Below are positions 1,399 through 17,348 of a stretch of DNA of 20,000 nt, piece by piece. The notes beneath the pieces are model-generated. The model did not search any database. It worked only from the letters and a program-made list of their open reading frames with translations, and had not been told where the DNA came from. The DNA lies in IMG/VR virus record IMGVR_UViG_3300021602_000281; one strand, given 5' to 3'. Both the position numbers and the translations under genes were made by a program. Position 1 is the stretch's first letter. Each line of letters starts with the position of its first letter. The DNA comes from an uncultured virus (IMG/VR IMGVR_UViG_3300021602_000281) (taxonomy: Duplodnaviria; Heunggongvirae; Uroviricota; Caudoviricetes).

Positions 1399-2577
1399 TT
1401 ATTGGAATGATAGATTTGCTACAGCGATTTCGCCAACGTAGTCACCAGCGTTACCTAAAGATGATGCTGTGTTTGTTAACTCAACATATCCGTAACGTGT
1501 CATGAACGATACGACTGGTTCAAAAGTGCTTGGATCTAGAACAACACCAGAGCTCATCAAAGGAATATAAGGGCAATAGAACGCAGCTGCATCAGCTTCG
1601 CTAGAACCTTTATAACCAACTAGAACTGCTTGGCTGTCATTTGCATAACCGTCAACATAAATCTTCATTGCACCGTTCAATGTACCAACAAACTTAGTGT
1701 TTGTAGGAGCTTCAAAAGTACCTTCTGTTGTACGGGCAAATGCGCTTGTTGTAGCAGATTGTAATACTGTTAATGCAGCTGGGGAAACAACAGCCCAGTT
1801 ACCAGCACCACGACGTGTACGCTGAGCGATCAAGTTAGCTGTACGGTTGACTAGAACAGCTAAAGCAGCGTGTTCGTCACCAACGAATGTAGCAGTACCT
1901 GAAACGGCAGCTTGGTCGAATGTGAAGTCAGTTGCGGCAAGAGCACGTAGTGAACCAAGAATCTCTTGATCAATTTCTACAGTGATTTCTTGTGCTAAAG
2001 CAGCCATAATTTCAGCTTCAACATCTAAACCGTGCATGGATTGTGCATCCTGAGCGGCTTCAAATGTCCAACGAGCTGACAATTTGCGTGTCTTAGCTTC
2101 AACAACTTGTTTCAAGATTTGAACGTTGATACGGTTACCAGCAACACCTTCTAATGCGGATGTTGAAGTAGCTTGACCAGTAGATGAACTACCAGAGTAT
2201 GCAACAGCAATCTTAAATGGGCTCAATGCTTCATCACCAGCAGCAGTGGATGTTGCGTATGCGCTTGAATCAGTTTGGTTGTCAGCGTAACGTACACGTA
2301 GTGTATGGATCTGTGCAACTGGACCTGTCATTGGTTGTACACCAACGATTTCGTTAGCGATAACAGTTGGCATAACACGACGGATAACAGGTAGAATAAC
2401 ACGGTTAAGTGTTGCTACGTTACCAGCTTGTGTTGCACCGCCTGAAGCGTTTTCTGCTAACATCTTGCGAGTGTTTTCTAAAATCACACCCATTGTGGTT
2501 CTCTTCGAACCTTGTAGGCCTTCTAGCAGGGCATCTTTTGTTTCGCCCCAACGGCTTTCTAATAATGCTTGTGTCAT
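1399..2577 (-). CDS. gp23: Major capsid protein, T4 gp23-like
   Basis: Hallmark gp23 segments: LPVIRRVMPTVIANEIVGVQPMTGP, AKTRKLSARWTFEAAQD, VGYKGSSEADAAAFYCPYIPL, FMTRYG. Follows the protease and scaffold genes. Confidence 0.96.
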   Translation of the reverse strand: MTQALLESRWGETKDALLEGLQGSKRTTMGVILENTRKMLAENASGGATQAGNVATLNRVILPVIRRVMPTVIANEIVGVQPMTGPVAQIHTLRVRYADNQTDSSAYATSTAAGDEALSPFKIAVAYSGSSSTGQATSTSALEGVAGNRINVQILKQVVEAKTRKLSARWTFEAAQDAQSMHGLDVEAEIMAALAQEITVEIDQEILGSLRALAATDFTFDQAAVSGTATFVGDEHAALAVLVNRTANLIAQRTRRGAGNWAVVSPAALTVLQSATTSAFARTTEGTFEAPTNTKFVGTLNGAMKIYVDGYANDSQAVLVGYKGSSEADAAAFYCPYIPLMSSGVVLDPSTFEPVVSFMTRYGYVELTNTASSLGNAGDYVGEIAVANLSFQ

Positions 2578-3724: not shown

Positions 3725-4363
3725 CTATAGTTTCAAATCTTTGATAAGGCGGGTTACTGCCTCTTTCAGGTACTTCTGTACTCGTTGATTACCACTGGCT
3801 TCACGTGCCATTTCGAACACCTGATTTCCCCCACGCATATTCATTAAGCTCTCATAGATTGCTTTTGGATAGGCATGCGGAGCACTAGGCTGTGCTACAA
3901 CGTCCACGGTAATGATTTCAAAACCACTAACGTGTCCACTACTTTCGTTTACTTCCCCAGATCCACGTGAACTAACTCCTAGCTTAACGCCAGAAGTAAG
4001 CATAGCTCTTACAAGCTCGCCCATTGGGGTAGGTAATACTTTTAGTTTTCCAAAACCAGCAGGGCCATCCATCCACATTTCTGTGATCATATGGCTTACG
4101 CGGTCTAGATTAATCTTTAAATCGTCTGGATGATCCACTTCGCCTAAGACGGAGTAGCCACCTTTGATTTGATCATTAATTGTACCAACGGCTTTTTCAA
4201 TTTCGTGAACGGGGTAAACTCGTTCGTTAGCGTTTTTAACGCCTCCTTCGATGAATACCCCTTTCATATAGAGATCTTTACCTTTCCCGTCGGCTGCATC
4301 CTCGCTTAATACTTGGATACCAGCCCGGTCAAAAGTTAAGTTCTCTTTTAGGTACAAAGCCAT
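3725..4363 (-). CDS. gp21: Prohead protease, T4 gp21-like
   Basis: Motifs GVFIEGGVKNANERVYP, GEVDHP, LGVSSRGSG and DVVAQPSAPHAY are characteristic of gp21. Confidence 0.95.
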   Translation of the reverse strand: MALYLKENLTFDRAGIQVLSEDAADGKGKDLYMKGVFIEGGVKNANERVYPVHEIEKAVGTINDQIKGGYSVLGEVDHPDDLKINLDRVSHMITEMWMDGPAGFGKLKVLPTPMGELVRAMLTSGVKLGVSSRGSGEVNESSGHVSGFEIITVDVVAQPSAPHAYPKAIYESLMNMRGGNQVFEMAREASGNQRVQKYLKEAVTRLIKDLKL

Positions 4364-5805: not shown

Positions 5806-7515
5806 TTAAATTGTAGGAACCGCGCCAACCGCGCCTGCTGCACCTTGATTACCCGGCCCTGTTGCACCTGGTGCCGATTCGGGACCGCCGGCTTCTGGAT
5901 TGCTGGCTTCTGGGCCAAGTCCTTCTAAGTCACTTTGTATTCCGCCGGGACTTACACCAACACTACGCAAGCCAGGAGCATCGGGAGTTGCAATTTCTGT
6001 ATCTCCACGTTCTTCTGCAAACATTACTTCGTTTTCACTAATCTCTTGCTCAGTCATACCTAAATAACGTTTCATTAAGTAGCGTTTGCTCAGATAAGGA
6101 AATTGCTCTAACTGTGTAAATGTTGCGATACGAGCAGAGTCAATGTCTGCCTGGCGATATTGTGCAAAGTTTTGTGGTTCGTTAAACGACAATTCAAATA
6201 GTGATCCGTCGATATTAAATCCACGCCACTTCATAAACAGCTTAAACTCAGTGTCTAACGGATCAGCAACCATTGCCTGTAAACGCTGGCAGTATTGATT
6301 AAAGCGCCATTCTTGTATAAGTGCTGTACCCACACGACCGTCTGTGTATGCTTGGCTACCATCATCTGCTGTAGTGGGCAAGTAACTACTTGGTATACGC
6401 AAACCGCGGAATAACTTGTTAGTAAAGAAACGTAAGTCTGTAATTTCACCTAGATTGGCACCGCCGGGCAATACATCTACACTACTACCACGATTGTCTG
6501 CTGTTACAGGGAAAAAGTAATCTTCGTTTGTGCTCAATGGATTATATGTAGCATCCATCATATTACCACCACCCCCACCACTTTGTGATGGAATACGACG
6601 CTGATGGATTTCGTTCTTAATACGCTCAACAAACGCCATAGCCATATGACTTGGCATGTTGCCCACGTCAATTTTAAAGATTCTACGCTCTGGAGCACGT
6701 TGCACACGATAGATAATAATGCTATCTTCCAGCAATTCTTTTTGCTTAAAGACCTTAAAAATGTTCTCTAATACACTATTGCCAAACGGCCAAAATACAT
6801 CAAGCCCTTCTGTTAAACTAACGTGTACAATGTGTTCTGCAGCAATTGCCGCTTCGTTTTTAGCATGGCTAAAACGTGAACCACCACCAAATGGTGTGCT
6901 TGGCTGTACATAAGATCCGCTCGGGCCGCCTGTCTGCGGGTGATTTGAATTTGTATCAGTTGTTGCTACTGCTGTCATTGTTAAATTTTCAAAATTAGGA
7001 TTTAGATCCTTAATTAAGTATTGCTCGGGCTTTTTGCCTTCACCTTCGTTGACAATAACTTTTGTTACTTTAGACATTTCTGTCCACATTAGTTTAAAGT
7101 TTTGCGGATCACGTATAAAAACTTGATCGCCGTACTTTAACGTATTACGCATAATTTTAAATATGCGTTTGTTTAATTCGTTTAATGCGACCCACTGTTG
7201 CAACTGTTCTTTAAGAATCTTTACTTCGTTGTCGCTTGGTTGTTCTTTAAATTTAAGTGTAAATGCTGTGTGATTTTCTTGATTCTTTTGTGTGCAGAAC
7301 TCTGCCAAGATATCAAGAGCCGCATTTACTTCACTATCCATATCCATTTGTTCATATTGATTATAACGTTCAACACGGTTTGGATGACCAATATACACTT
7401 CAGGCAATTGGCTTTGGTAATTACGCATTCCTGGATCGGGTGCGCGGCCGCCACCTAATGGACTAATATTACTAGGAAGGTTTGATGTTTTAAAATATTT
7501 TTTCCAGCCGGCCAT
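5806..7515 (-). CDS. gp20: Portal vertex protein, T4 gp20-like
   Basis: Motifs LLEDSIIIYRVQRAPERRIFKIDVGNMP, EDYFFP and LFRGLRIPSSYL are characteristic of gp20. TAAATA at 7536-7541. Confidence 0.95.
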   Translation of the reverse strand: MAGWKKYFKTSNLPSNISPLGGGRAPDPGMRNYQSQLPEVYIGHPNRVERYNQYEQMDMDSEVNAALDILAEFCTQKNQENHTAFTLKFKEQPSDNEVKILKEQLQQWVALNELNKRIFKIMRNTLKYGDQVFIRDPQNFKLMWTEMSKVTKVIVNEGEGKKPEQYLIKDLNPNFENLTMTAVATTDTNSNHPQTGGPSGSYVQPSTPFGGGSRFSHAKNEAAIAAEHIVHVSLTEGLDVFWPFGNSVLENIFKVFKQKELLEDSIIIYRVQRAPERRIFKIDVGNMPSHMAMAFVERIKNEIHQRRIPSQSGGGGGNMMDATYNPLSTNEDYFFPVTADNRGSSVDVLPGGANLGEITDLRFFTNKLFRGLRIPSSYLPTTADDGSQAYTDGRVGTALIQEWRFNQYCQRLQAMVADPLDTEFKLFMKWRGFNIDGSLFELSFNEPQNFAQYRQADIDSARIATFTQLEQFPYLSKRYLMKRYLGMTEQEISENEVMFAEERGDTEIATPDAPGLRSVGVSPGGIQSDLEGLGPEASNPEAGGPESAPGATGPGNQGAAGAVGAVPTI

Positions 7516-7548: not shown

Positions 7549-10170
7549 TTATGCAGCAGCTTGGAATATTTTTTCGGAAAAGTCTCTATTTTCCATCATT
7601 ACTGCAATTAACCGATCCATTTTAGAAATTAGTTCACCTACATCTAATTTAACCGGTACTGTGCGACCGTCTGGCAATGGTATAACTGCTTCGGGTCCTG
7701 CTTCACCTGCAATACTTGTTCCATCTGTAATACCACCTTTGGCCATTTTTTGTATATGTCCAGGATCGCCGGGTACTGTTTTAAATCCAAATTGTTTCAG
7801 CAGGCCGGCGGAATCGAGTGCATCAAAACTATTGCGATCTATATCTAATGCTTTACCAAGGGAATGGAAACTAGCATCTGGCGATGGGGTTGTTACACTA
7901 CCAAATGTTGGAGTATTAACAGTTGGCTTGGTTTTGCCTCCGCCGCCGGCTAACCATTCATTGTACAAAGCAGTTTGTTGTGCTTGTGTGCGGAAGCCGG
8001 ACTGAAGTTTTACCGGTTTGCCATATGCCGCAAGCATTTCTTCAAAACTACCCCTAGTACCAGGATCTAATGCGTCATAATTAGCCCTGTTACCAGTTAC
8101 TCCGCCAGAAAAAGACAATAATTTATCAATGCCTTCTCTTCTTTCAGATTCTTTCTTTTCCTTATAAGTGTCACTAGTTCCCCCAGCAAGCCCTAACCTA
8201 TCTGCTATATAGTCGCCGGCCTTGCCGCCGCCGTACATGCCACCGCTAACAAGCGCGGTTGTTGCTAAAAGGCCGGTGCCACCTGTTGTAACACCTAACC
8301 CAAGAGCAGCACCGGCGCCGGCAATGGTTCCAAGGGCTTGTCCTCCGTAATGCCATGCTTTTCTACCCCAAGAGGCCTCTTCTTTTGATTTTGGTCCTCC
8401 TGTTGATTCGTTTATATATTTCCTCAACTGCGTAGCAACATCTGCAATCATCTCAGAAAAAATTGTAACTGCTTTAGATACTTGACCTGCTTCTCCAAAT
8501 AATCGTATTAATTCTGTAGTTACTTTGTGTAACGCTGTTGCCATTTCTGCTGTTTGACCTATGGTCTTGCTTGTAATTTTATCTAGTTCTTGGTGATTTG
8601 TTCTAACAATGTTTGTTAGTGCAACAACTGCGGCAGCTTCAGCATCCATTGCTTTTCTGGTATTGTCCCAGGCTGCTGTTACTGCACTATTGAGATTTGT
8701 ACGGACACCTTCACTATCGAGTTGTTGTTTAATACCCTCTGTAATAGTTTTAGTTACTTCGTCACCAGCATATTGACCTAATTGTACTAGACCTGCTAAT
8801 AGTGTAGTTTGTGCTTCAATTGCCTTTTTAGATCCTTCAACTATCCCGCCAATGGCTTTAGTTCTAGCTTCGCCTTCAAGATTTTTTGTGGCTATGATTT
8901 GGTCAATTGCTTTGTTTTGTTCCACAAAGTATGCGGCTGTCATCTGACCACTCTGTGATATCACTTGTCCGTCTAGCGCAACTTTTTCTTTATATAAATC
9001 GGCAGATTGAGCACCGTATGTTTTGCGTACTATCAATTCCGCATTCATTGTATCTTGCATACGTGTGCCGCCATCTTTTGCGTCAAGTTGTCCTAATTCG
9101 CGAAGTTTTAATCTGTATGCAATATCTTTATTTGCTTCTTCTTGTTCTTTTTGTAATTGTTCAACTGTTTGCCCAGTTATCTCTGACAACGCTTTTAAAT
9201 TAGTTAAGTATGCTCCAGAATTTTTTATTAGATAATCTTGCTGTTGAGTTGCGCTTAATCCTACACTGGCCATTTGTTTACCAAACCCAACCAATGCGCC
9301 TGAAACTTTATCATACCCCCCGTATAGTATTACAAGTTTTTTATTATGATCTGTTGCAGATGCACTCATTTTCCCAATAAGAGTAGTGGATTGGTCAACT
9401 GTGCCGCCCATTTCTGTTAAACCAACTATGTTAGTCTTAACAAATTTTGCAAATTGATCTAACCACATACCAGAATTTTTTGCTTTATCTGCTAGTCCAC
9501 CAAGTTGTCCACCAAACGTTGCACCAACTGAACTTAACTGATTATAATTATCAACATATTTCTCTGCCATTTCAAGTTGCATTTTTGCAACTTGAACCGT
9601 TAAGTCAACACCAACACCAACAACTTTTGCTACACCTTCTGATGCTTTACCAAAACTAAATCCAAATACAGAAACACCGCTAACCATTTCAGCAAGACCA
9701 GACACAACAGACTTAATGGTAGTTCCCATTAAGTCTAAAGTTGGTATTGCGCTAGTGAACAGTTTGTCGCTAGACGCAAATGCGCTAACAACGCTCAAGG
9801 AGCCTGAGGCTAATTTATTAAGTCCATCCACTGACTTATTAAATCGTTCTTGTAATTTTTTAGTTGCTTCTTCTTCTAGGGCTGTTCGTTTTGCTAAAGC
9901 TTCAGACTGATCAGTTTCTTGTTTAATTTTTTTAGCCGTTAACGTGGCCATTGTTTTAGCGTCAGCTTGATCTATTCCGCGCTGTCTTAAGTCTTTTTCA
10001 ATTGATTTTATTAATGATTGATGTGCCCTTGCCTGCTCAAGAGCCTGCAATGTAGCCGACTTTACCGCTTTGTCTGTGGCTTTAGATAATTTATCCATAC
10101 CCCCAGCAACACCTGGTAATGTAATCCCCAGTCGGTCAAATGTTTCTGCTATCTTTGGGTCTATATCCAT
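7549..10170 (-). CDS. Tape-measure-like tail protein with C-terminal M15-type peptidase domain
   Basis: 873 aa, long Ala/Lys/Gln helical region and Gly-rich hydrophobic stretch. Contains SGFRTxxQQxxLY...SFHSLGKALDI...DPGH, then a GGITxGxSIAGEAGPEAVIPL tail motif common in tape-measure proteins. Confidence 0.75.
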   Translation of the reverse strand: MDIDPKIAETFDRLGITLPGVAGGMDKLSKATDKAVKSATLQALEQARAHQSLIKSIEKDLRQRGIDQADAKTMATLTAKKIKQETDQSEALAKRTALEEEATKKLQERFNKSVDGLNKLASGSLSVVSAFASSDKLFTSAIPTLDLMGTTIKSVVSGLAEMVSGVSVFGFSFGKASEGVAKVVGVGVDLTVQVAKMQLEMAEKYVDNYNQLSSVGATFGGQLGGLADKAKNSGMWLDQFAKFVKTNIVGLTEMGGTVDQSTTLIGKMSASATDHNKKLVILYGGYDKVSGALVGFGKQMASVGLSATQQQDYLIKNSGAYLTNLKALSEITGQTVEQLQKEQEEANKDIAYRLKLRELGQLDAKDGGTRMQDTMNAELIVRKTYGAQSADLYKEKVALDGQVISQSGQMTAAYFVEQNKAIDQIIATKNLEGEARTKAIGGIVEGSKKAIEAQTTLLAGLVQLGQYAGDEVTKTITEGIKQQLDSEGVRTNLNSAVTAAWDNTRKAMDAEAAAVVALTNIVRTNHQELDKITSKTIGQTAEMATALHKVTTELIRLFGEAGQVSKAVTIFSEMIADVATQLRKYINESTGGPKSKEEASWGRKAWHYGGQALGTIAGAGAALGLGVTTGGTGLLATTALVSGGMYGGGKAGDYIADRLGLAGGTSDTYKEKKESERREGIDKLLSFSGGVTGNRANYDALDPGTRGSFEEMLAAYGKPVKLQSGFRTQAQQTALYNEWLAGGGGKTKPTVNTPTFGSVTTPSPDASFHSLGKALDIDRNSFDALDSAGLLKQFGFKTVPGDPGHIQKMAKGGITDGTSIAGEAGPEAVIPLPDGRTVPVKLDVGELISKMDRLIAVMMENRDFSEKIFQAAA

Positions 10171-10200: not shown

Positions 10201-10218
10201 TAAGTATACATATATTTA
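10201..10218. promoter_or_regulatory. Overlapping divergent late-promoter cores
   Basis: TAAGTA on plus (10201-10206) points to the gp26-like gene. TAAATA on minus (10213-10218) points to the tape-measure gene. Confidence 0.45.
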
Positions 10219-10229
10219 TGGAGTTCAAA

Positions 10230-11081
10230 ATGAACAGTTTATCAACTAATCCGCTGGCAAAGCATTTTAGACAGCCAATTTTACATATTAAACTTCCAAG
10301 CCAAGGAAAATGGTGGACAGAAGGAAGCATTGAGTTACCAGTGACCGGGGAATTGCCAGTGTATGCAATGACTGCCAAAGATGAAATCACTATAAAAACA
10401 CCAGACGCATTATTAAACGGAACTAGTACCGTGGCTGTGATCCAAAGTTGCTGCCCAAACATTAAAAATGCGTGGAAGCTGCCAATGGTAGATTTAGATA
10501 AAATATTAATTGCTATACGAATTGCCAGTTACGGCTCTGAATTGGAATTCACTTGTGTATGCCCCCATTGTAACACCAAGAACGAACACGGACTTGATAT
10601 TTCCGTAATGAGCGATAAAATTGGACTTGGGTCATGGGATACTCCAGTATTAGTGGATAATTTAGAAATTACACTATCCCCGCAGTCATACGAAAGCTAC
10701 AATAAAAACAATATAACAGCATTTGACGAAGAAAGAATTATGAAGGTTGTACAGAATGTTGAATTATCTGACGAAGAAAAAGCAAAACAGTTTGATGTAT
10801 TATTTAGAAAACTAATTGAAACTGGTCTAGCACAAGTTAGTAAAAGTATCCAGCATATTAAAATACTTGATGAAGAACCAGTGATAGTCAACGATCCTGC
10901 ATTTATTAAAGATTTTTTAAATAACTGCGATCGATCTGTTTGGGAAAAAATTAAACTTGCCATTGACAATATTAAACAAGAATCAGACTACACTCAAATT
11001 GATATAATTTGCAGTAATCTTGAATGTGAAAAACCTTTTGTAACACCTTTTACGTTTGAACAAACAAATTTTTTCGCCTAA
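10230..11081 (+). CDS. T4 gp26-like baseplate hub / tail assembly chaperone
   Basis: N-terminal IKLPSQG...VYAMTAKDEI, DLDKILIAIRIASYG, CPHC zinc knuckle and C-terminal CxxxxC...NFFA resemble gp26-family proteins. ATG 10230 has GGAG SD (alternative ATG 10218). Confidence 0.75.
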   Translation: MNSLSTNPLAKHFRQPILHIKLPSQGKWWTEGSIELPVTGELPVYAMTAKDEITIKTPDALLNGTSTVAVIQSCCPNIKNAWKLPMVDLDKILIAIRIASYGSELEFTCVCPHCNTKNEHGLDISVMSDKIGLGSWDTPVLVDNLEITLSPQSYESYNKNNITAFDEERIMKVVQNVELSDEEKAKQFDVLFRKLIETGLAQVSKSIQHIKILDEEPVIVNDPAFIKDFLNNCDRSVWEKIKLAIDNIKQESDYTQIDIICSNLECEKPFVTPFTFEQTNFFA

Positions 11082-11086
11082 GGCTT

Positions 11087-11305
11087 TTGTCTTTAGAGTC
11101 CGAAGAAATTATCCAGCTGCTTGATAAGATGGATAAAGAGACAAAAGCCTTAAAACACGATATATTAACACTATGTTGGTTTATGCGTGGAAGTATATCG
11201 TATGACGATGCTATGATGCTGTCACCCGATGACCGTGATATAATTGGCAAAATTATTAAGAGCAATTTAGAAACTACAAAAGATTCTGGGTTACCTTTCT
11301 TTTAA
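11087..11305 (+). CDS. Small gp51-like baseplate/tail assembly protein, possibly a -1 frameshift extension of the upstream ORF
   Basis: Segment LCWFMRGSISYDDAMMLSPDDRDII follows the gp26-like gene. No clear SD, and the start would be TTG 11087 or ATG 11129. The frame is open from 11060 through the slippery site. Confidence 0.65.
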   Translation: MSLESEEIIQLLDKMDKETKALKHDILTLCWFMRGSISYDDAMMLSPDDRDIIGKIIKSNLETTKDSGLPFF

Positions 11306-11426: not shown

Positions 11427-11467
11427 TTCTACTGTCAGAGATGATGGTATTTAAAAGGAGATTTATA

Positions 11468-11701
11468 ATGGATATTCTTAATACGATTAAGAAGTGGGCT
11501 AGTACATTAGCAGACACAGGAGTTAGTATCATCGCTCTTGCTATTGTGCTAGAAGTTCTATTTAAAGGAGTAGCAATTCCTTTCTTTCCAGCAGTATCAG
11601 TAACTGCAAACGTTACATCGATTGTAGCGTCAATTGGGTCACAAGGTCTTGTGGGCTTAGTGGCTATTTGGGTGCTTTATAGCATCTGGAAAAACAAATA
11701 A
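11468..11701 (+). CDS. Small membrane protein (77 aa, 2-3 hydrophobic segments)
   Basis: AAGGAG SD 7 nt before ATG 11468. Hydrophobic stretches GVSIIALAIVLEVLF and GLVGLVAIWVLYSIW, with a basic C-terminus. Confidence 0.8.
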   Translation: MDILNTIKKWASTLADTGVSIIALAIVLEVLFKGVAIPFFPAVSVTANVTSIVASIGSQGLVGLVAIWVLYSIWKNK

Positions 11702-11721
11702 TCAATCTGTTGATCTAAAAT

Positions 11722-11770
11722 AAGAGGAATATCCCATTCGTAGTATATCTGCGAGTGTTATATTCTTCTT
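11722..11770 (+). terminator. Long imperfect hairpin 3' of the membrane-protein gene (terminator/stabiliser candidate)
   Basis: AAGAGGAATAT-CC-CATTCGTAG-TATAT-CTGCGAGTG-TT-ATATTCTTCTT. It has three G-U pairs on the plus strand and is followed by a T-rich tract. Confidence 0.5.
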
Positions 11771-11849
11771 TCTATTTCGAGACTTACTACGTAAGTCTAT
11801 TGATATCGCTATCGCTCATCAATTTATTTTTTTAATTGTTTTTGTTTTT

Positions 11850-12260
11850 AGATAGTATCATCCAGATTAATTGGTCACACTTTGCCCGCACTGGGCAAAG
11901 ATAAGATCTGTAGCATCATCCGAGTAGCACAGTCACTTAGCGTTACAACATTACAGAGGCGGTTGTCCGGTACCTCGAGTTGTGTCTTTATACAACGGCG
12001 GTCCACAATATATACGCTAACATACTTGTGAACGTGTAGCATCACTGCTACGTCTTTTTAGCCTTTAATTTTTTTCAAACAATCAAACCGCGGCGATTAG
12101 CGATCTTCGTCCTGTTAAGGATAGTGATTGAGTGCTCTTTTACAGCGAAGAGTCTTCCGTCCCTGTGATCCGAGATCCAGTTGTCGTGGGCATCCGTGCT
12201 TAGCCGATGCTAGCCTATACTGTATTTGCGTTCTGAGCCGGACTTTGTGTCGGAAGTGAT
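11850..12260 (-). ncRNA. Candidate large structured non-coding RNA (family not recognised)
   Basis: No ORF of 60 aa or more. About ten adjacent stems, with G-U pairs and a GUGA tetraloop that favour the minus strand, and a 7-bp loop-distal complementarity. Boundaries are approximate. Confidence 0.6.
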
Positions 12261-12262
12261 TG

Positions 12263-12691
12263 TTACAACTTGTTTATGATATGGGAGCCATGGACACGAA
12301 CAGAAATCTGTCCGTTATAATAATCTGTAGTTTCTAATACTTTACGTTCAAATTGTTCTCTTGCTTCAATGTAACTACACTCTGCCTTACTTTTACAGTA
12401 ATACAATATTTCACGTGTAAACTTGTCAATACCCAATTTTTCTACGTCACTGTTTAATTCTAAATTTGAGCCATAATATGATTGCCAATCCGAATCAACT
12501 TTGCTTCGGATTTTCTTTTTCTTTTTGTTACCATTTTTTAACTTTACTACCTTGTACGACGTTTTACTAAACTTTGCTAATTTTTTTCCAACATATTTCC
12601 TACCAGATACAGTATTTGTAATCAAATATACAAAACCTATACAGTCTTCGGGTAGAGTTTCTACTAAGATATTTTCGTGTAGCCATGTCAT
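12263..12691 (-). CDS. GIY-YIG family endonuclease
   Basis: GFVYLITN...KYVGKK motif, YYGS segment, FTREIL, conserved Glu (YIEAREQ) and YYN. 142 aa, nuclease domain only, with a very basic insertion. Confidence 0.85.
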   Translation of the reverse strand: MTWLHENILVETLPEDCIGFVYLITNTVSGRKYVGKKLAKFSKTSYKVVKLKNGNKKKKKIRSKVDSDWQSYYGSNLELNSDVEKLGIDKFTREILYYCKSKAECSYIEAREQFERKVLETTDYYNGQISVRVHGSHIINKL

Positions 12692-12710: not shown

Positions 12711-13721
12711 TTACCAGGTGGTGGCGTATTCTTGATTTACAACGGTTGTATTACATTTTGTTTTACATTCTTGCCATCTAAAAGTTTTAAGTTCGGTTTC
12801 CCAAAACGGGTCACCGAGTACTTCTTCTAAATTGCGAGTCTGTAAACTAAACCTTTCTGCTAGTTCCTGCCATTCATTGTTGTGACTGTATCTATTTGCA
12901 ACCCAACAACACGGAAATAATCTACCACGTGCATCAATATACAACCCTTTGTTACCAATTTCGCACAACGGTATAATTTCTTTATTGTCTTTTACTTTGT
13001 TATATAATATAGCATTAGCAACATTAAACCTAACGGTTTTTGCTATTCTGGACAAATTCTTTGTAATTCTTTCAAATCTATGTGTACTGCTCACAAATTT
13101 AGTACTTGGCTGTAAAGGATCATCAACTCCGTATATTGGATACACACTCCCAAACTTGGTAGACTTGGTAATTTGAAAAACATCCATGCCTAAATTAAAT
13201 GCTTGTTGTTCCATGGCAGCTAAATGATCTTCGTTAAACTTAAACGCAATAGCAGCCCATGTCATGCGACATGTTGAATATTTGCGTACACTTTCAATAC
13301 CATTAATTATGCTATCGTAGTCGCTGTTCACACGATATAAATTATTGCTTTGGTTATTAAATCCATCAACACTAAAATGTATGCTATCTACGCTGGTTAA
13401 TGTCTGCGCCAGCTCTTTCCACCAGGATACTTTTTTATGGGATCCGTTTGTAATAATAACAATCTCAACTGGCTTGATACTTTTGATGTATTGTATCACA
13501 GCAATTAAGTCGTGTGCATATATAGGATCACCATCGTCACCACAGAATGTAATTTTCTCTACGTTGGCTTTGATAAATTCTGGCGTAAAGTTGCGTTGAA
13601 AAAATTCTAAGTCTAACTCAGTGTTTATCAGGCTGTCTGGCACTTCTTGTCTAGCACACCTAGGACAACGTAGCGTACACTTACTGCTAATTTCAATATG
13701 AAAGTGCCACGTGGCTAACAT
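12711..13721 (-). CDS. Radical SAM protein with C-terminal SPASM/twitch-like domain
   Basis: CTLRCPRC [4Fe-4S] motif, CGDDGDP, ITNGS, FSVDG, and C-terminal C...YIDARGRLFPCC...CKTKC. Confidence 0.9.
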   Translation of the reverse strand: MLATWHFHIEISSKCTLRCPRCARQEVPDSLINTELDLEFFQRNFTPEFIKANVEKITFCGDDGDPIYAHDLIAVIQYIKSIKPVEIVIITNGSHKKVSWWKELAQTLTSVDSIHFSVDGFNNQSNNLYRVNSDYDSIINGIESVRKYSTCRMTWAAIAFKFNEDHLAAMEQQAFNLGMDVFQITKSTKFGSVYPIYGVDDPLQPSTKFVSSTHRFERITKNLSRIAKTVRFNVANAILYNKVKDNKEIIPLCEIGNKGLYIDARGRLFPCCWVANRYSHNNEWQELAERFSLQTRNLEEVLGDPFWETELKTFRWQECKTKCNTTVVNQEYATTW

Positions 13722-14569
13722 AATTGCACCTCACGTTGCCATTGGTTTGTAAAGCTATTATTGGTACCGGAACATGTTGCACGACACACAGGATGCGGAT
13801 TGGTGTTCCATGTTGCAGATACTTGTTCCATTGTGACAAATTCTGTTTGGGTACTGCCCAACCAACAGCAAGGGCTGACACGGCCTTGTGCATCTATATA
13901 AGTACTTTGCTCTTGTACTGCAATACATTGTATTGGACCCGCTTCCTGCTTGGGATCTTGCCACCCAATGGGAAACTCTAGTCCGTTAATATACGGACGT
14001 TTACTAACCTTGGCACGGAACCAAGTAAAGCCCAAGGAATGTGCAAATTCTGCACATTGGTCAACTTGATGTTGGTTGTGTGCATACACTAGCATATCCC
14101 AGTGAGCATGGCCACCTGCATCAATGAATGCTGTTACATTTTCAATTAATTTACCCCAATTGCTATTTTTACGATATATGTGATTGGTATCCGCTAGTCC
14201 ATCTATGCTGAATACAACATAGTCTCTAGGTTGATTGAGTAGTTTGCCAAGTTGGGTCCACCATTGTTTAGTTTGTAAACTCCCATTGGTATTCATACCC
14301 AATGTAATGGCGGGATTGACACTTCTAAAGTAGTTGTATATATCCACAGTATGTGCGCCAGCAGCCGGATCACCATAATTACCGCACATAAACATTTTAT
14401 CCAACTGTTGAATAAATTCTACATTAAACTTATCTTTAATCTGCTCAACAGTTAAATGATGTTTAAGTGCTTTATTGAAAGCTGGATCGGTTTCACGGGC
14501 ACACAAAGGACATGCCAATTGACAAACATCCGTTGGTTCCACATGCAGTACCTTAGGTGATATCAACAT
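13715..14569 (-). CDS. Radical SAM protein with C-terminal SPASM/twitch-like domain
   Basis: CQLACPLC motif, CGNYGDP, NTNGS, FSIDG, and YIDAQGRVSPCC...CRATC. Start taken as ATG 14569, overlapping the gp46 end (ORF track gives 14593). Confidence 0.9.
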   Translation of the reverse strand: MLISPKVLHVEPTDVCQLACPLCARETDPAFNKALKHHLTVEQIKDKFNVEFIQQLDKMFMCGNYGDPAAGAHTVDIYNYFRSVNPAITLGMNTNGSLQTKQWWTQLGKLLNQPRDYVVFSIDGLADTNHIYRKNSNWGKLIENVTAFIDAGGHAHWDMLVYAHNQHQVDQCAEFAHSLGFTWFRAKVSKRPYINGLEFPIGWQDPKQEAGPIQCIAVQEQSTYIDAQGRVSPCCWLGSTQTEFVTMEQVSATWNTNPHPVCRATCSGTNNSFTNQWQREVQLC

Positions 14570-16322
14570 CGGTACTATAACTAGTGTAGCCATTTTCTTT
14601 TACAACATGCAAGGTATTGTTCACGCGACCGATTAATTCATCCTTGTGCGATACTAGCCAAATTGATTTGTTGGACTCCCGCGACATCTTCTTAAGGATA
14701 GCCAACGAACTTTCAACACCTGAGCTATCGAGGCCTGAGTCGATTAACTCATCGATGAACAATAAGTTAATGGGTTGATATAGACTTTCCCACACATCAC
14801 GGAAACTCCAACTTAGCGATAGGATCAATCTATTTCGTTCACCTCTGCTTAAATTGTCAAAGTCTAAATCTCTGCCTAGCTCAGTGATACTTACCGTCAA
14901 GTCGTTATTAAACTTAATAGTATGTGGCAAACCAATGCGGTCTAAGTATTGTCCAAGTCGTGCATTTAGATAGCTTAGGTTTTGATCGATAATACGTTTA
15001 CGTATAAATGAATCTTTGTTTGTTAACAGTTTAAGCAAGAACTCTTGATGCTCTTTAACATTTGTAAGGTCGTTGATAGTGTCGTATGTGATCTCCTCGA
15101 CACCTTGCTCTTGCATTTCAACAATCTGTTCGGCATATGGATCTTGTTCTGCTATCTTAGATGCCAACTGTTCTACCAAGTTATCAACGCTTGCTTGATG
15201 GTGAATGGCATCGGATTCTTTTGTATAAAACGTTTCGGGCTTGGCCCCTAATTTACCAAGCGATGTAGTGGCATTTATTAATTCTGCAACCAACTCTGAA
15301 TGTGCGTTGGCAGCAGATCTAGCAGTTTCTAATTCTGTCTTCTTGCTATCTAGTACTTGTTCGTGTTTGGTGTCGTGGAACGATTGGCCACATGTGTGAC
15401 ACTGATGATTTTCTAGCGTGGTAATTTCAGCAACTAACTTTGAAACAGTTTTTTCTTCTCGTTGCAAATCCATTTTTGCTCGGCTGGTCGCGCTAGAAAG
15501 ATCGTTTAAATCTTTACGCAATTGTTCCCACACAGCAAGCTCTTTGTGCAATTGTATTTCTTTGATGATATCAATTTTTTGCAATTCCGCTGTTGCATTT
15601 TCAATCTTTGTTATCTCTTCGGCATGCTTAGTAGTCCACAGAGTTTGTCTGCGTTTTAAGGCGTCAATTTGCTCTTGAATACGCACATTTGCGTCGGTAA
15701 CTGCCTTAATACGGAACTCTTCTTGCGTTATAGAGTCTCGGGTTACCTTTGTCTGTTCTTTAAGTTTATCGGCTTTTTCGCTTAGTAATGTGATACCAAG
15801 CAATTGCTCAATGATAGTACGTTGATCATTTGCCCGTAATGCCAGGAATGGTTCTGTATAGGTGTTTAGTGCCACAATGTGCTTGAACATATCGTGACTC
15901 ATGCCCAACATACGTTCTATGTCACCTTGTGTTTCTCTGCTGTCACCTTGTGCATCATCGGTAATTTCTTTTTCTTGATCGCCTACCCAAAACTTCATTA
16001 TGTTGGGTTTACGTCCACGTTCAATACGATAGCTTTGCCCGTCTTTTTCAAAATCAATAGTAACCATCATACCTTTAGTATTGGTTTTATTAATTAAGTT
16101 ATCTTTTTTAATGTTAGTTAGAGCATTGCCGTATAACGCATAGCTTAATGCGTTAATGATAGTAGTTTTACCTGTGCCGTTACGGGCACCAGAATCGTCC
16201 CCACCTAGATCTAAGTTTTCACCTAGCACAAGGGTTAAGTCCTGCCGGTCAAAGTTAACTGCTTGGGTAGTATTACCCACACTCATAAAGTTACGAACGG
16301 TTAAGTCTTTTATTTTAAACAT
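14553..16322 (-). CDS. gp46: Recombination endonuclease ATPase subunit, gp46 (Rad50/SbcC-like)
   Basis: Walker A GARNGTGKTT, coiled coil with CHTC zinc hook, signature LSRGE, Walker B/D-loop LLFIDELIDSGLD, and H-loop VSH. Confidence 0.95.
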   Translation of the reverse strand: MFKIKDLTVRNFMSVGNTTQAVNFDRQDLTLVLGENLDLGGDDSGARNGTGKTTIINALSYALYGNALTNIKKDNLINKTNTKGMMVTIDFEKDGQSYRIERGRKPNIMKFWVGDQEKEITDDAQGDSRETQGDIERMLGMSHDMFKHIVALNTYTEPFLALRANDQRTIIEQLLGITLLSEKADKLKEQTKVTRDSITQEEFRIKAVTDANVRIQEQIDALKRRQTLWTTKHAEEITKIENATAELQKIDIIKEIQLHKELAVWEQLRKDLNDLSSATSRAKMDLQREEKTVSKLVAEITTLENHQCHTCGQSFHDTKHEQVLDSKKTELETARSAANAHSELVAELINATTSLGKLGAKPETFYTKESDAIHHQASVDNLVEQLASKIAEQDPYAEQIVEMQEQGVEEITYDTINDLTNVKEHQEFLLKLLTNKDSFIRKRIIDQNLSYLNARLGQYLDRIGLPHTIKFNNDLTVSITELGRDLDFDNLSRGERNRLILSLSWSFRDVWESLYQPINLLFIDELIDSGLDSSGVESSLAILKKMSRESNKSIWLVSHKDELIGRVNNTLHVVKENGYTSYSTDVDIT

Positions 16323-16331
16323 AGATTTTTA

Positions 16332-17348
16332 TTATAGATTCCTGTATATGTCTAACAACAAGTTTGGGTTATATTGATTACTATCAATAGTGCTCAGTTG
16401 ACTAAACACAATTTGATCCACGCTCTTAAAATCTATGTTACCTTGTATTTCATAATCTGTTAGCTCTGTCGTCTTGGCAGGTATTAGTGTTATCTCTCGA
16501 AGTTTGTAAGTATCAATAAACGTTTCTTTGACAAAAGTAGCTTCTTCGTAGCTGATATCAATGTCCAAGTTTACTCTAACATGCATATTGGGTTTAAGCA
16601 TAACTTCTGTGTGCTTTAATACATCGCTAAGTTGGAATACACGATACATTGGTTGATCGGGCCAAGAATGATATACAGGTTCTTTATCCCATTCTAAAAT
16701 AGTAAGTCCGCGATCGTCGTCCCCTGCGTCTGCATAGTTATGTGGGAAACAATTGCCGATGTATGTTACATTGCGTTGTGTTTGACGTTTATGAAAGTGG
16801 CCTGTAAACACATGCTCAAATCCTTGCATGTCATTGCCCGTGATCTCTCCATGGTCCGGCATAGCAACCATGGCATTCATTAAATACCCGGGCAATTCAA
16901 AGTGCCCAAACATATACTTACCTTTTAGCTTTTTTAACTTTTTGTGGTCGTCCCCAACCAACCAAGGAGCAATAACCACATCGCCGAAAGTAGTCCAATC
17001 GTTACAAATATGGATATTAGATAAGTGCTTTGCCCACTCCACACTTTGTACATCACGCTTGTCGCGATAATACAAATCGTGGTTACCCGGAATGAAGTAT
17101 GTTTGATCAAAGTTTTCATTTAAATGCTCCAATGCCCGCAGGCTGTATCCCAATGTAAGGATGTTAATGCTTGCTCTATTATTATGCCAGTCGCCGAGAA
17201 AGAGAGCAGTCTCGCATCCTTCTTCTCGGGCTTTTGTAGTTGCCCATTTAACGAAGTTCAAACAATCTTCATTGTGCAATGTGCTATTTGATTTCAACCC
17301 AAAATGTATATCTGTAAAGACCGCAGCCTTCTTAAAGAGATTTGTCAT
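16332..17348 (-). CDS. gp47: Recombination endonuclease nuclease subunit, gp47 (Mre11/SbcD-like)
   Basis: Metallophosphoesterase motifs DIHFG, LGDW, GNHD, GH and GHFH, adjacent to gp46. Confidence 0.95.
   Translation of the reverse strand: MTNLFKKAAVFTDIHFGLKSNSTLHNEDCLNFVKWATTKAREEGCETALFLGDWHNNRASINILTLGYSLRALEHLNENFDQTYFIPGNHDLYYRDKRDVQSVEWAKHLSNIHICNDWTTFGDVVIAPWLVGDDHKKLKKLKGKYMFGHFELPGYLMNAMVAMPDHGEITGNDMQGFEHVFTGHFHKRQTQRNVTYIGNCFPHNYADAGDDDRGLTILEWDKEPVYHSWPDQPMYRVFQLSDVLKHTEVMLKPNMHVRVNLDIDISYEEATFVKETFIDTYKLREITLIPAKTTELTDYEIQGNIDFKSVDQIVFSQLSTIDSNQYNPNLLLDIYRNL

Follow-up and report, generated by a model that had tools for sequence, protein, structure and literature searches.

The Polynucleobacter-1 motif was first published by Weinberg et al. 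in 2010 as an RNA of unknown function; its entry in that survey comprises 16 sequences from Burkholderiales and from fresh water or estuaries, scored "RNA? y, cis-reg? y, switch ?" (PMC2864571). A second precedent is segB of phage T4, a GIY-YIG homing endonuclease gene that sits inside a tRNA gene cluster (PMC2330249). Homologues of SegB are described as enriched near tRNAs and as able to amplify the adjacent segment (PMC13096335), and segB-type genes can drive preferred inheritance of such a segment (PMC2330249; PMC13096335). Here we describe a locus in a 20,000-nucleotide (nt) stretch of an uncultured virus (IMG/VR record IMGVR_UViG_3300021602_000281), referred to throughout as the window, in which a small GIY-YIG nuclease gene adjoins a large, pseudoknotted RNA encoded on the minus strand. 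The catalogued motif, 141 nt long in its listing since 2010, accounts for only the first third of this RNA of 360 nt or more. Taking identity, extent and independence from the nuclease jointly, we put the probability that the locus is an autonomous minus-strand noncoding RNA (ncRNA) at roughly 0.6.

Identity, extent and fold of the RNA

When IMG/VR was scanned for the invariant core of the RNA as an exact pattern, 48 viral loci were returned, which together with the window make 49 loci and 36 distinct sequences. The distinct sequences were aligned with MAFFT, and this alignment (A1) underlies the counts that follow unless another sample is named. The first-pass annotation, made from the letters of the window alone, had pointed to a gap without genes in an otherwise tightly packed genome. 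This gap is real: the open reading frame (ORF) of the GIY-YIG nuclease and an ORF of 86 amino acids on the opposite strand converge on it (Table 1), and between positions 11701 and 12263 lie just three short ORFs of 43 to 56 amino acids. The longest of these (11875-12045, minus strand) remains open in only 2 of the 36 sequences, and the stretch is therefore called non-coding. Homologues of the convergent 86-amino-acid ORF are present in 5 of the 49 viral loci.

When the 20 kilobases (kb) were scanned by cmscan with the Rfam thresholds, the single match was to RF01718 (Polynucleobacter-1), on the minus strand. It scored 104.7 bits against a gathering cut-off of 37 (E 4.1e-22), covered model positions 1-141 of 141 and was not truncated. 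The first-pass annotation had named a strong match to a described Rfam family as grounds against it that would remove novelty, and for the 5' 139 nt this one does so; the rest of the RNA falls in no Rfam model, and when 11650-12350 was rescanned permissively (E up to 10), everything beyond RF01718 was at chance level (E 0.14-5.1). The RF01718 helices P1, P2, P3, P4 and P6 are retained by compensatory change, with P1, P3, P4 and P6 covarying in A1, and P5 is invariant. The joining words CACAGGGAYGGAA, CACUAUCC and GGACG are invariant columns in all 36 sequences, an observation that is circular for CACAGGGAYGGAA and CACUAUCC because the loci were gathered with a pattern containing both words. 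Membership of RF01718 was confirmed in 13 of 14 additional loci tested, plus the genome-contig locus L051 described below. No paralogue was detected: each of five viral records had a single RF01718 match, and nhmmer found no extra match in four contigs. The annotated phage collection contained no DNA match to the locus.

Conservation extends well past the Rfam model. Among the 49 relatives, identity to the window per 20-nt bin was 0.47-0.88 from the start of the RNA to about position 11857 and dropped on either side, the lowest value being at 11917-11898, where the linker before hairpin H9 differs in length. The whole block, including the 3' extension, is common to the 48 viral contigs, and the 3' part (approximately 220 nt, 12076-11857) has as many invariant A1 columns as the Rfam part.

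A structure of 84 pairs was tested on the 36 sequences. We observed that 86.2% of alignment cells were paired, compared with 73.4% after column shuffling (none of 500 shuffles was as high) and with 39-43% when partners were slid by 1-3 columns. Changes on both sides were found in 60 of the 84 pairs, and cells with such changes numbered 411, against 143 in shuffled alignments. The low scores of hairpins H5, H6, H9 and T1 (64-83%) result from MAFFT misaligning length-variable hairpins. Two considerations count against a structured RNA: the sequences are related, so that the shuffle controls overstate significance and the slid control is the fairer one, and the fold of the single sequence is not more stable than its shuffles (z = -0.23). 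The evidence for the predicted structure is comparative, not thermodynamic.

Nine stems had been proposed for this strand from the window alone, and seven of them (P1 to P4, H5, H6 and H9 in Table 1) are supported by compensatory change. The remaining two did not hold up as drawn. In the stem now called H8, the outer GAGG/CCTC is 100% paired, whereas the inner CGG/CCG is not supported. The local hairpin GTTGT/ACAAC (11996-11979) is unsupported as well, and jointly with the inner CGG/CCG it pairs 75.5% of cells compared with 75.3% after shuffling, with 234 of 500 shuffles doing as well. These two stems are replaced by the pseudoknot pairings PK2 and H7. The invariant TCC/GGA of P5 is neutral with respect to covariation, neither for nor against. 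Downstream of the 5' domain, an A-rich linker leads to hairpin H5, which MAFFT aligns poorly, and then to H6. The loop of H6 forms one strand of PK1, a long-range helix with a downstream strand that shows both-side changes in all of its pairs and was also chosen by RNAalifold on its own. Conservation and covariation in relatives bear out the proposal that the minus strand encodes a large phage RNA with a pseudoknotted structure.

Beyond the core lie two further conserved hairpins, T1 and T2. The T1 stem shows both-side changes in most of its pairs, but just 64% of its cells pair in A1; its conserved 15-nt loop, TGAGCGAnAGCGAAA, occurs downstream of box B in both clades of the family. The loop can also be read as a GC stem of two base pairs (bp) bearing a GAUA tetraloop, with UGA on one side and GAAA on the other. 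T1 and T2 may be shared convergent terminators, or the RNA may run on to include them as its 3' end. The RNA is approximately 360 nt long to the end of box B and approximately 435 nt long if T1 and T2 belong to it.

Several described RNA classes were set aside. In agreement with the first-pass annotation, the RNA is neither a tRNA nor a transfer-messenger RNA (tmRNA), with no ARAGORN gene in the window, and neither an intron nor an RNase P RNA, since no such Rfam model matched at E up to 10 within 11650-12350. Group I and group II intron, RNase P, ribozyme and riboswitch models gave no Rfam match, in a search that permuted or very divergent forms would escape. A hammerhead-like reading of TGATGAGCGATAGCGA (11821-11806) was rejected: some of its letters are the covarying T1 stem, relatives lack CUGAUGA, and there is no Rfam match. 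In T4 gene 60, the bypass cassette has a hairpin between matched take-off and landing sites; a translational bypass cassette was rejected here because there is no conserved ORF (open in 2 of 36) and the spacing of the two boxes described below, 47-58 nt, is under no frame constraint. A repeated-end template for a reverse transcriptase was likewise rejected, for want of a conserved frame and because a scan of 20 window ORFs turned up no such enzyme.

Table 1. Coordinates of the RNA, its parts and neighbouring genes (window positions, except for the DUF6641 genes, which are on distant-clade loci)
Feature	Position	Strand	Basis or observation
Conserved ncRNA core, ~360 nt, first Rfam position to end of box B	11857-12215	-	
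5' domain, 139 nt, full-length RF01718 member	12077-12215	-	cmscan
Helix P1, GCATC/GATGC	12210-12190	-	5/5 pairs changed on both sides; 99% of cells paired
Helix P2, CTGGATC/GATC-CAG	12180-12163	-	3/7 pairs with compensatory change
Helix P3, CTCTT/AAGAG	12152-12135	-	5/5 pairs with compensatory change
Helix P4, CAATCA/TGATTG	12130-12080	-	4/6 pairs with compensatory change; 97% paired
Helix P5, TCC/GGA	12121-12110	-	Invariant
Helix P6	12105-12086	-	4/6 pairs with compensatory change
Hairpin H5, GTAGCA-GTGA-TGCTAC	12036-12051	-	6/6 pairs changed on both sides; 67-77% of cells pair
Hairpin H6, GTTCACAA.../...TTGTGGAC	12001-12033	-	9/11 stem pairs changed on both sides
PK1 5' strand, H6 loop TTAGCGT	12020-12014	-	7/7 pairs changed on both sides; 96.8% of cells pair
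PK1 3' strand, ACGCTAA	11937-11943	-	Partner of 12020-12014
PK2 5' strand, GTTGT	11992-11996	-	Partner H8 loop ACAAC, 11966-11962; 3/5 pairs changed on both sides; 97% of cells pair
Helix H7, ACAAC (11983-11979) with GTTGT (11949-11945), enclosing H8	11945-11983	-	4/5 pairs changed on both sides; 80% paired
Hairpin H8, GAGGT...GCCTC	11976-11956	-	100% paired; 3 pairs changed on both sides
Box A, GGATGAT (module A)	11915-11921	-	GTGA at 11936-11933; CTC directly 5' of box
Hairpin H9, CTTTGCCC-AGTGC-GGGCAAAG, between the two boxes	11880-11900	-	3 pairs changed on both sides; 83% of cells pair
Box B, GGATGAT (module B)	11857-11863	-	GTGTGAC at 11880-11874; TCT directly 5' of box
Hairpin T1, loop TGAGCGATAGCGATA	11823-11799	-	Conserved; 4/5 pairs changed on both sides
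Hairpin T2	11797-11781	-	Conserved
GIY-YIG nuclease, 142 amino acids, catalytic domain only	12263-12691	-	Pfam PF19835 SegE_GIY-YIG, E 2e-31, residues 3-129
Convergent 86-amino-acid ORF closing the gap	11441-11701	+	ORF list
Terminator-like site for the 86-amino-acid ORF	11735-11757	+	
Two radical-SAM genes, between gp46 and the nuclease	12711-14593	-	Pfam
SbcCD-like gp46/gp47 pair	14553-17348		Pfam
T4 baseplate protein gene	10218-11081	+	Pfam
Gp20 portal gene	5806-7515		Pfam
Prohead protease gene	3725-4363		Pfam
Gp23 major capsid gene	1399-2577		Pfam
DUF6641 / phrog_31551, ~145 amino acids, lysine-rich	L051 2335-2769; L080 271-714; L112 317-754; L129 91-528	-	

The distant clade and the twin boxes

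A more distant clade of at least nine bacterial or island-type members (L051, L080, L092, L112, L117, L121, L129, L143 and L152) was obtained from a looser metagenome scan, in which the matches listed were mostly spurious, and from a scan of genome contigs, in which L051 was the only true family member among three matches. All nine loci are full-length RF01718 matches (93.5-101 bits), and the Rfam seed sequences from the 2010 supplement fall in this clade. Approximately 115 nt past the Rfam part, the distant loci carry, in the order known from the first clade, the H8/PK2 motif, CTC followed by a 7-mer, a hairpin at the place of H9, and TCT followed by the identical 7-mer. The repeated word is AGCGAAA in L112 and L129, AACGAAA in L080 and GACAAAA in L117; in L051, compared by eye, the 7-mer GCGAATG is shared with a shift of one base in register, and the two copies disagree at the first aligned box position. 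A covariance model of the 3' subdomain of the first clade matched four of the nine distant loci end to end and in the collinear place. What speaks against a common 3' domain is that these four matches are marginal (E 0.042, 0.1, 0.13 and 0.31, with several loci truncated) and that L051 gave no match to the model at E up to 1. From their architecture and these marginal scores, the 3' domains of the two clades are likely to be homologous.

The surroundings of the distant copies are different. All four distant loci with enough flank have an oppositely oriented DUF6641 gene upstream; its products are 39-94% identical, and the two loci with 94% identical proteins have the same box word. The DUF6641 protein is a candidate protein partner of the RNA. 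L051 also carries an integrase domain downstream of the RNA. The distant copies are found in small elements that bear an integrase, next to a DUF6641 gene in divergent orientation.

An unusual feature of the 3' domain is a pair of 7-nt words, box A and box B, which stand 47-58 nt apart and are identical to each other in 35 of the 36 viral sequences. With metagenome members added, the boxes agree in 44 of 45 distinct 3' domains, the sole exception (L027) differing by one base. Eight words occur: GGATGAT, GGATGAA, GGATAAT, AGATAAT, AGATGAA, AGATGAT, GGAAAAT and GCATAAT. When B boxes were dealt at random, the mean was 6.6 matches and the maximum 19 in 10,000 trials. The identity is sharply bounded, in that A equals B in 45 of 45 domains at box positions 1-6 and in 44 of 45 at position 7, but in 0, 0 and 8 of 45 at the three bases before the box (CTC versus TCT) and in 4 of 45 just after it. 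The two modules are paralogous and flank hairpin H9; in each, a conserved GTGA or GTGTGA is followed by a spacer and by a pyrimidine triplet that leads into the box. By eye, this arrangement (GTGA or GTGTGA, then ...GGATGAT) resembles a box C/D kink-turn, in which GUGA stands opposite GAUGA; the variants AGATAAT, GGAAAAT and AGCGAAA have no GAUGA word, which speaks against a strict C box.

Changes of the box word were mapped on a quick maximum-likelihood tree from which the box columns had been left out and in which 18 forks are unresolved. The word changed at least 11 times in box A and at least 12 times in box B, matched in both except in L027; position 1 alone changed at least seven times, flipping between G and A in both boxes together. 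Recombination moving both boxes jointly would inflate the count of 11 changes, a point against reading each as an independent event, and the safe minimum is seven coordinated double changes, from the eight matched variants. These patterns show that the two words are under selection to remain identical to each other while the word itself changes.

We hypothesize that the RNA would act in trans, and that the 5' domain and the pseudoknot core would form a rigid scaffold displaying the two identical boxes, which would let the RNA engage two copies, or two sites, of one sequence-specific partner. As to the nature of this partner, our tentative preference, held at rather less than even odds and ranked above a dimeric protein, is a 7-bp pairing of the boxes with a nucleic acid encoded outside the locus. 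External base pairing is favoured because single-base flips of the box word recur often. The bolder proposal, that the folded RNA is a bivalent guide whose twin 7-nt seeds serve as programmable address words for an external nucleic-acid target, is speculative and in our judgment distinctly unlikely. Such a guide might address a site that is repeated or palindromic, in DNA or RNA of phage or host, and pair with two copies of it or with both of its strands. If this were true, the long-orphan Polynucleobacter-1 family would represent an RNA-guided recognition module of a new class, borne by phages and islands and retargeted lineage by lineage.

A series of searches for the complement of the box weighs against pairing of this kind. 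Inside the RNA, the best column was complementary in 13 of 36 sequences, in a U-rich stretch and with G-U pairs allowed; within 1.6 kb on either side of each locus there was none. The tRNA and tmRNA arrays of two phage contigs contained no complement, and across the window and four partial phage genomes no orthologous place held one, the RNA locus itself being the only orthologous occurrence. Genome-wide counts in four contigs showed no enrichment of the box word either (22, 16, 25 and 54 observed, 43, 20, 11 and 40 expected), and a hairpin closing around box A, tested in the 45 domains, did not beat shuffles (41 of 45, against 82% of shuffles). No hairpin closing around either box beat shuffles. 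The single other ATCATCC in the window (4128-4134, in the gp21 protease mRNA) was considered as a partner and rejected, as it fails to track the box word in four relatives. Mutual information between the boxes and all other columns revealed only box-to-box and lineage-wide signals, and comparison of close relatives with different box words showed no other consistent difference.

Of the alternatives to external base pairing, the strongest is that the twin boxes are operators for a co-evolving RNA-binding protein that is dimeric or bound in two copies, with DUF6641 in the islands or a phage protein among the candidates. Lambda N and the boxB elements at nutL and nutR provide a precedent. The paralogy of the two modules agrees with such operators, as do the adjacency of DUF6641 in all four distant loci and the box word shared by the loci with 94% identical proteins. 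However, the recurrent G/A flips at position 1 of both boxes would be easier for a base-paired partner to follow, and tblastn (E up to 1) detected no DUF6641 in the window or in four T4-like contigs that are 23-65% complete. We regard protein operators as rather unlikely, and base pairing with an external nucleic acid remains the reading we favour.

Quite improbable, in our assessment, is an RNA-only homo-oligomer of the GOLLD, ROOL or OLE kind in which the boxes are contacts between protomers. Its large size, ornate and pseudoknotted structure, carriage by phages and many invariant bases left unpaired speak for this reading, and GOLLD, ROOL and OLE do form homo-oligomers, as described in PMC12286853. 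Contacts made by pairing, however, require complementary or palindromic words, whereas the boxes are identical, non-palindromic and without a complement in the RNA, and Rfam reported no similarity to GOLLD, ROOL or OLE at E up to 10.

Transcription and neighbouring genes

Eight freshwater or lake RNA libraries share words with the stretch, and the best four of the eight, from four studies, were used as assembled contigs. Their contigs together cover 11903-12311. Four of them (11957-12158, 11957-12139, 11991-12115 and 11903-12116) bridge the domain boundary at 12077, and one (12129-12311) spans the stop codon of the nuclease gene; uncovered stretches and the small-share runs X5-X8 were left out of account. 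These contigs lend weak support to expression of the locus. Several points tell against an autonomous transcript: the contigs carry no information on strand, ends or level, and RNA libraries can contain DNA; neither a sigma-70-type promoter nor an intrinsic terminator was found for the RNA itself; and the upstream stop codon lies only about 10-25 nt from helix P1 in many relatives, so that processing from an operon transcript is possible and the RNA may be cut from such a transcript in the viral clade. Co-transcription with the nuclease gene, as inferred in the first-pass annotation, may likewise occur. In the distant clade the upstream gene is divergent, and the RNA there therefore needs its own promoter.

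The same arrangement bears on the idea that the RNA is a cis element, either a 5' leader or riboswitch or a 3'-untranslated block that stabilizes and terminates the upstream operon, which we hold to be very improbable. The 2010 entry "cis-reg? y, switch ?" points this way (PMC2864571), as does the fact that in the viral clade the RNA closes a transcription unit, shortly after the stop codon of the gene before it. Against a leader, no same-strand gene follows the RNA and the next genes converge on it; against a 3' block, the upstream gene varies (GIY-YIG, PD-(D/E)XK and others), it is divergent in the distant clade, and some 360 nt with two pseudoknots far exceed what a terminator needs.

The neighbour that gave the locus its first description is the GIY-YIG gene. 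Its product also matches phrog_447 and homing-endonuclease phrogs; a sequence search of the PDB gave nothing below E 0.25. A tblastn homologue (65-88% identity) lies upstream of the RNA in 44 of the 49 viral loci, or 31 of the 36 distinct sequences, and ends 55-108 nt ahead of the core pattern. The gene upstream of the nuclease in turn varies, being the first radical-SAM gene, the second, or gp46 directly. The adjacent GIY-YIG gene is absent from five of the 49 viral loci. In L028, L030 and L037, an ORF of 171 amino acids occupies the nuclease slot and ends 7-11 nt before the RNA; the copy in L028 (1606-2121, minus strand), the only one scanned against Pfam, is a phage PD-(D/E)XK endonuclease (PF24608, E 1.9e-25) and also matches phrog_244, labelled RusA-like resolvase. 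An unrelated 151-amino-acid ORF fills the slot in L011, and in L026 an ORF of 340 amino acids is inserted between nuclease and RNA. In the giant T4-like freshwater phages the leftward gp47-gp46 block ends with the RNA, whatever gene stands just upstream. Alternation of small nucleases in a slot beside a conserved RNA gene is a habit of free-standing homing endonucleases, and the presence of a PD-(D/E)XK ORF in the GIY-YIG slot suggests that selfish nucleases replace one another next to the RNA. The GIY-YIG gene itself stands free, is of the homing-endonuclease type and is linked to the RNA by neighbourhood only.

Classical Seg and I-Tev enzymes have a DNA-binding domain. Least probable of all is an OMEGA-type RNA-protein machine in which the RNA would serve the adjacent nuclease as cofactor or guide: the gene lies directly upstream in most viral loci, its catalytic model spans residues 3-129 of 142 and leaves no room for a DNA-binding domain, and a pair of identical 7-nt words resembles guides, but the adjacent gene is missing in the five loci named above and replaced by the 171-amino-acid ORF in three, and tblastn found no GIY-YIG gene in the nine distant RF01718 loci, several of them short-flanked, with DUF6641 instead in the four of sufficient flank.

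By its gene content, the window is a fragment of a T4-like phage, and 84% of sampled words are common to it and the nearest virus record. Related virus records measure 87-231 kb at an estimated completeness of only 23-65%, and they therefore represent giant phages. The radical-SAM genes form a variable cassette, relatives carrying either one or neither at that place. Two related giant-phage records contain tRNA arrays, of 33 genes (G004, L179 9335-18915) and 21 genes (G006, L190 654-7054), the latter also including a tmRNA gene with the tag ANDEVYALAA. On the far side of the gap, a TTTTTTC run (11069-11075, plus strand) precedes the stop of the T4_baseplate (gp26-like) ORF, and an ORF of 72 amino acids (11087-11305) lies directly behind it. 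A protein of 873 amino acids (7549-10170, minus strand), possibly a tail or baseplate lysin, has a weak VanY-type peptidase match at residues 710-782 (E 0.0017, below the cut-off).

Comparison with known systems

As in the case of T4 segB, a small free-standing GIY-YIG gene of a T4-like myovirus here adjoins a conserved structured RNA. In contrast to segB, the neighbour is a large orphan RNA and not a set of tRNAs, and the protein, of 142 amino acids, matches the SegE-type catalytic domain. OMEGA systems consist of IscB or TnpB with an omega RNA, formerly the HEARO motif, and share with this locus a nuclease gene beside a large structured RNA with short variable words. However, obligate co-occurrence of nuclease and RNA fails here, as five of 49 viral loci show; the nuclease family is different, and in place of a single terminal guide there are two internal copies of one variable 7-nt word. 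The comparison carries a caution, namely that a nuclease gene adjoining a structured RNA need not form one machine with it.

GOLLD, ROOL and OLE are likewise large, heavily structured orphan RNAs, often borne by phages or prophages, that came from comparative genomics, as described in PMC12286853. They gave no sequence or structure match to this RNA in Rfam at E up to 10. At approximately 360-435 nt, the RNA is smaller than these three, which measure 580-800 nt, and we know of no report of twin identical words in any of them.

The closest system is Polynucleobacter-1 itself, with the same helices, the same invariant joining bases and the same freshwater habitat. The differences lie in what follows: the Rfam model ends after P4, whereas the RNA described here and its relatives with enough flank continue for at least 220 nt, a continuation that holds two interlocked pseudoknots and the twin boxes. 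The scoring of the motif as probably cis-regulatory in its 2010 entry (PMC2864571), an annotation by its authors and no part of the Rfam model, does not agree with the gene arrangement here. Within the literature searched, the name Polynucleobacter-1 was found in Weinberg 2010 only, and neither the 3' domain with its pseudoknots and twin boxes nor the phage context was found described. Relative to that literature, only the 5' third of the RNA is already catalogued. The RNA is carried by giant T4-like freshwater phages as well as by small mobile islands, and the sharply bounded identity of its boxes turns "function unknown" into two testable questions: what partner the boxes have, and why they are there twice.

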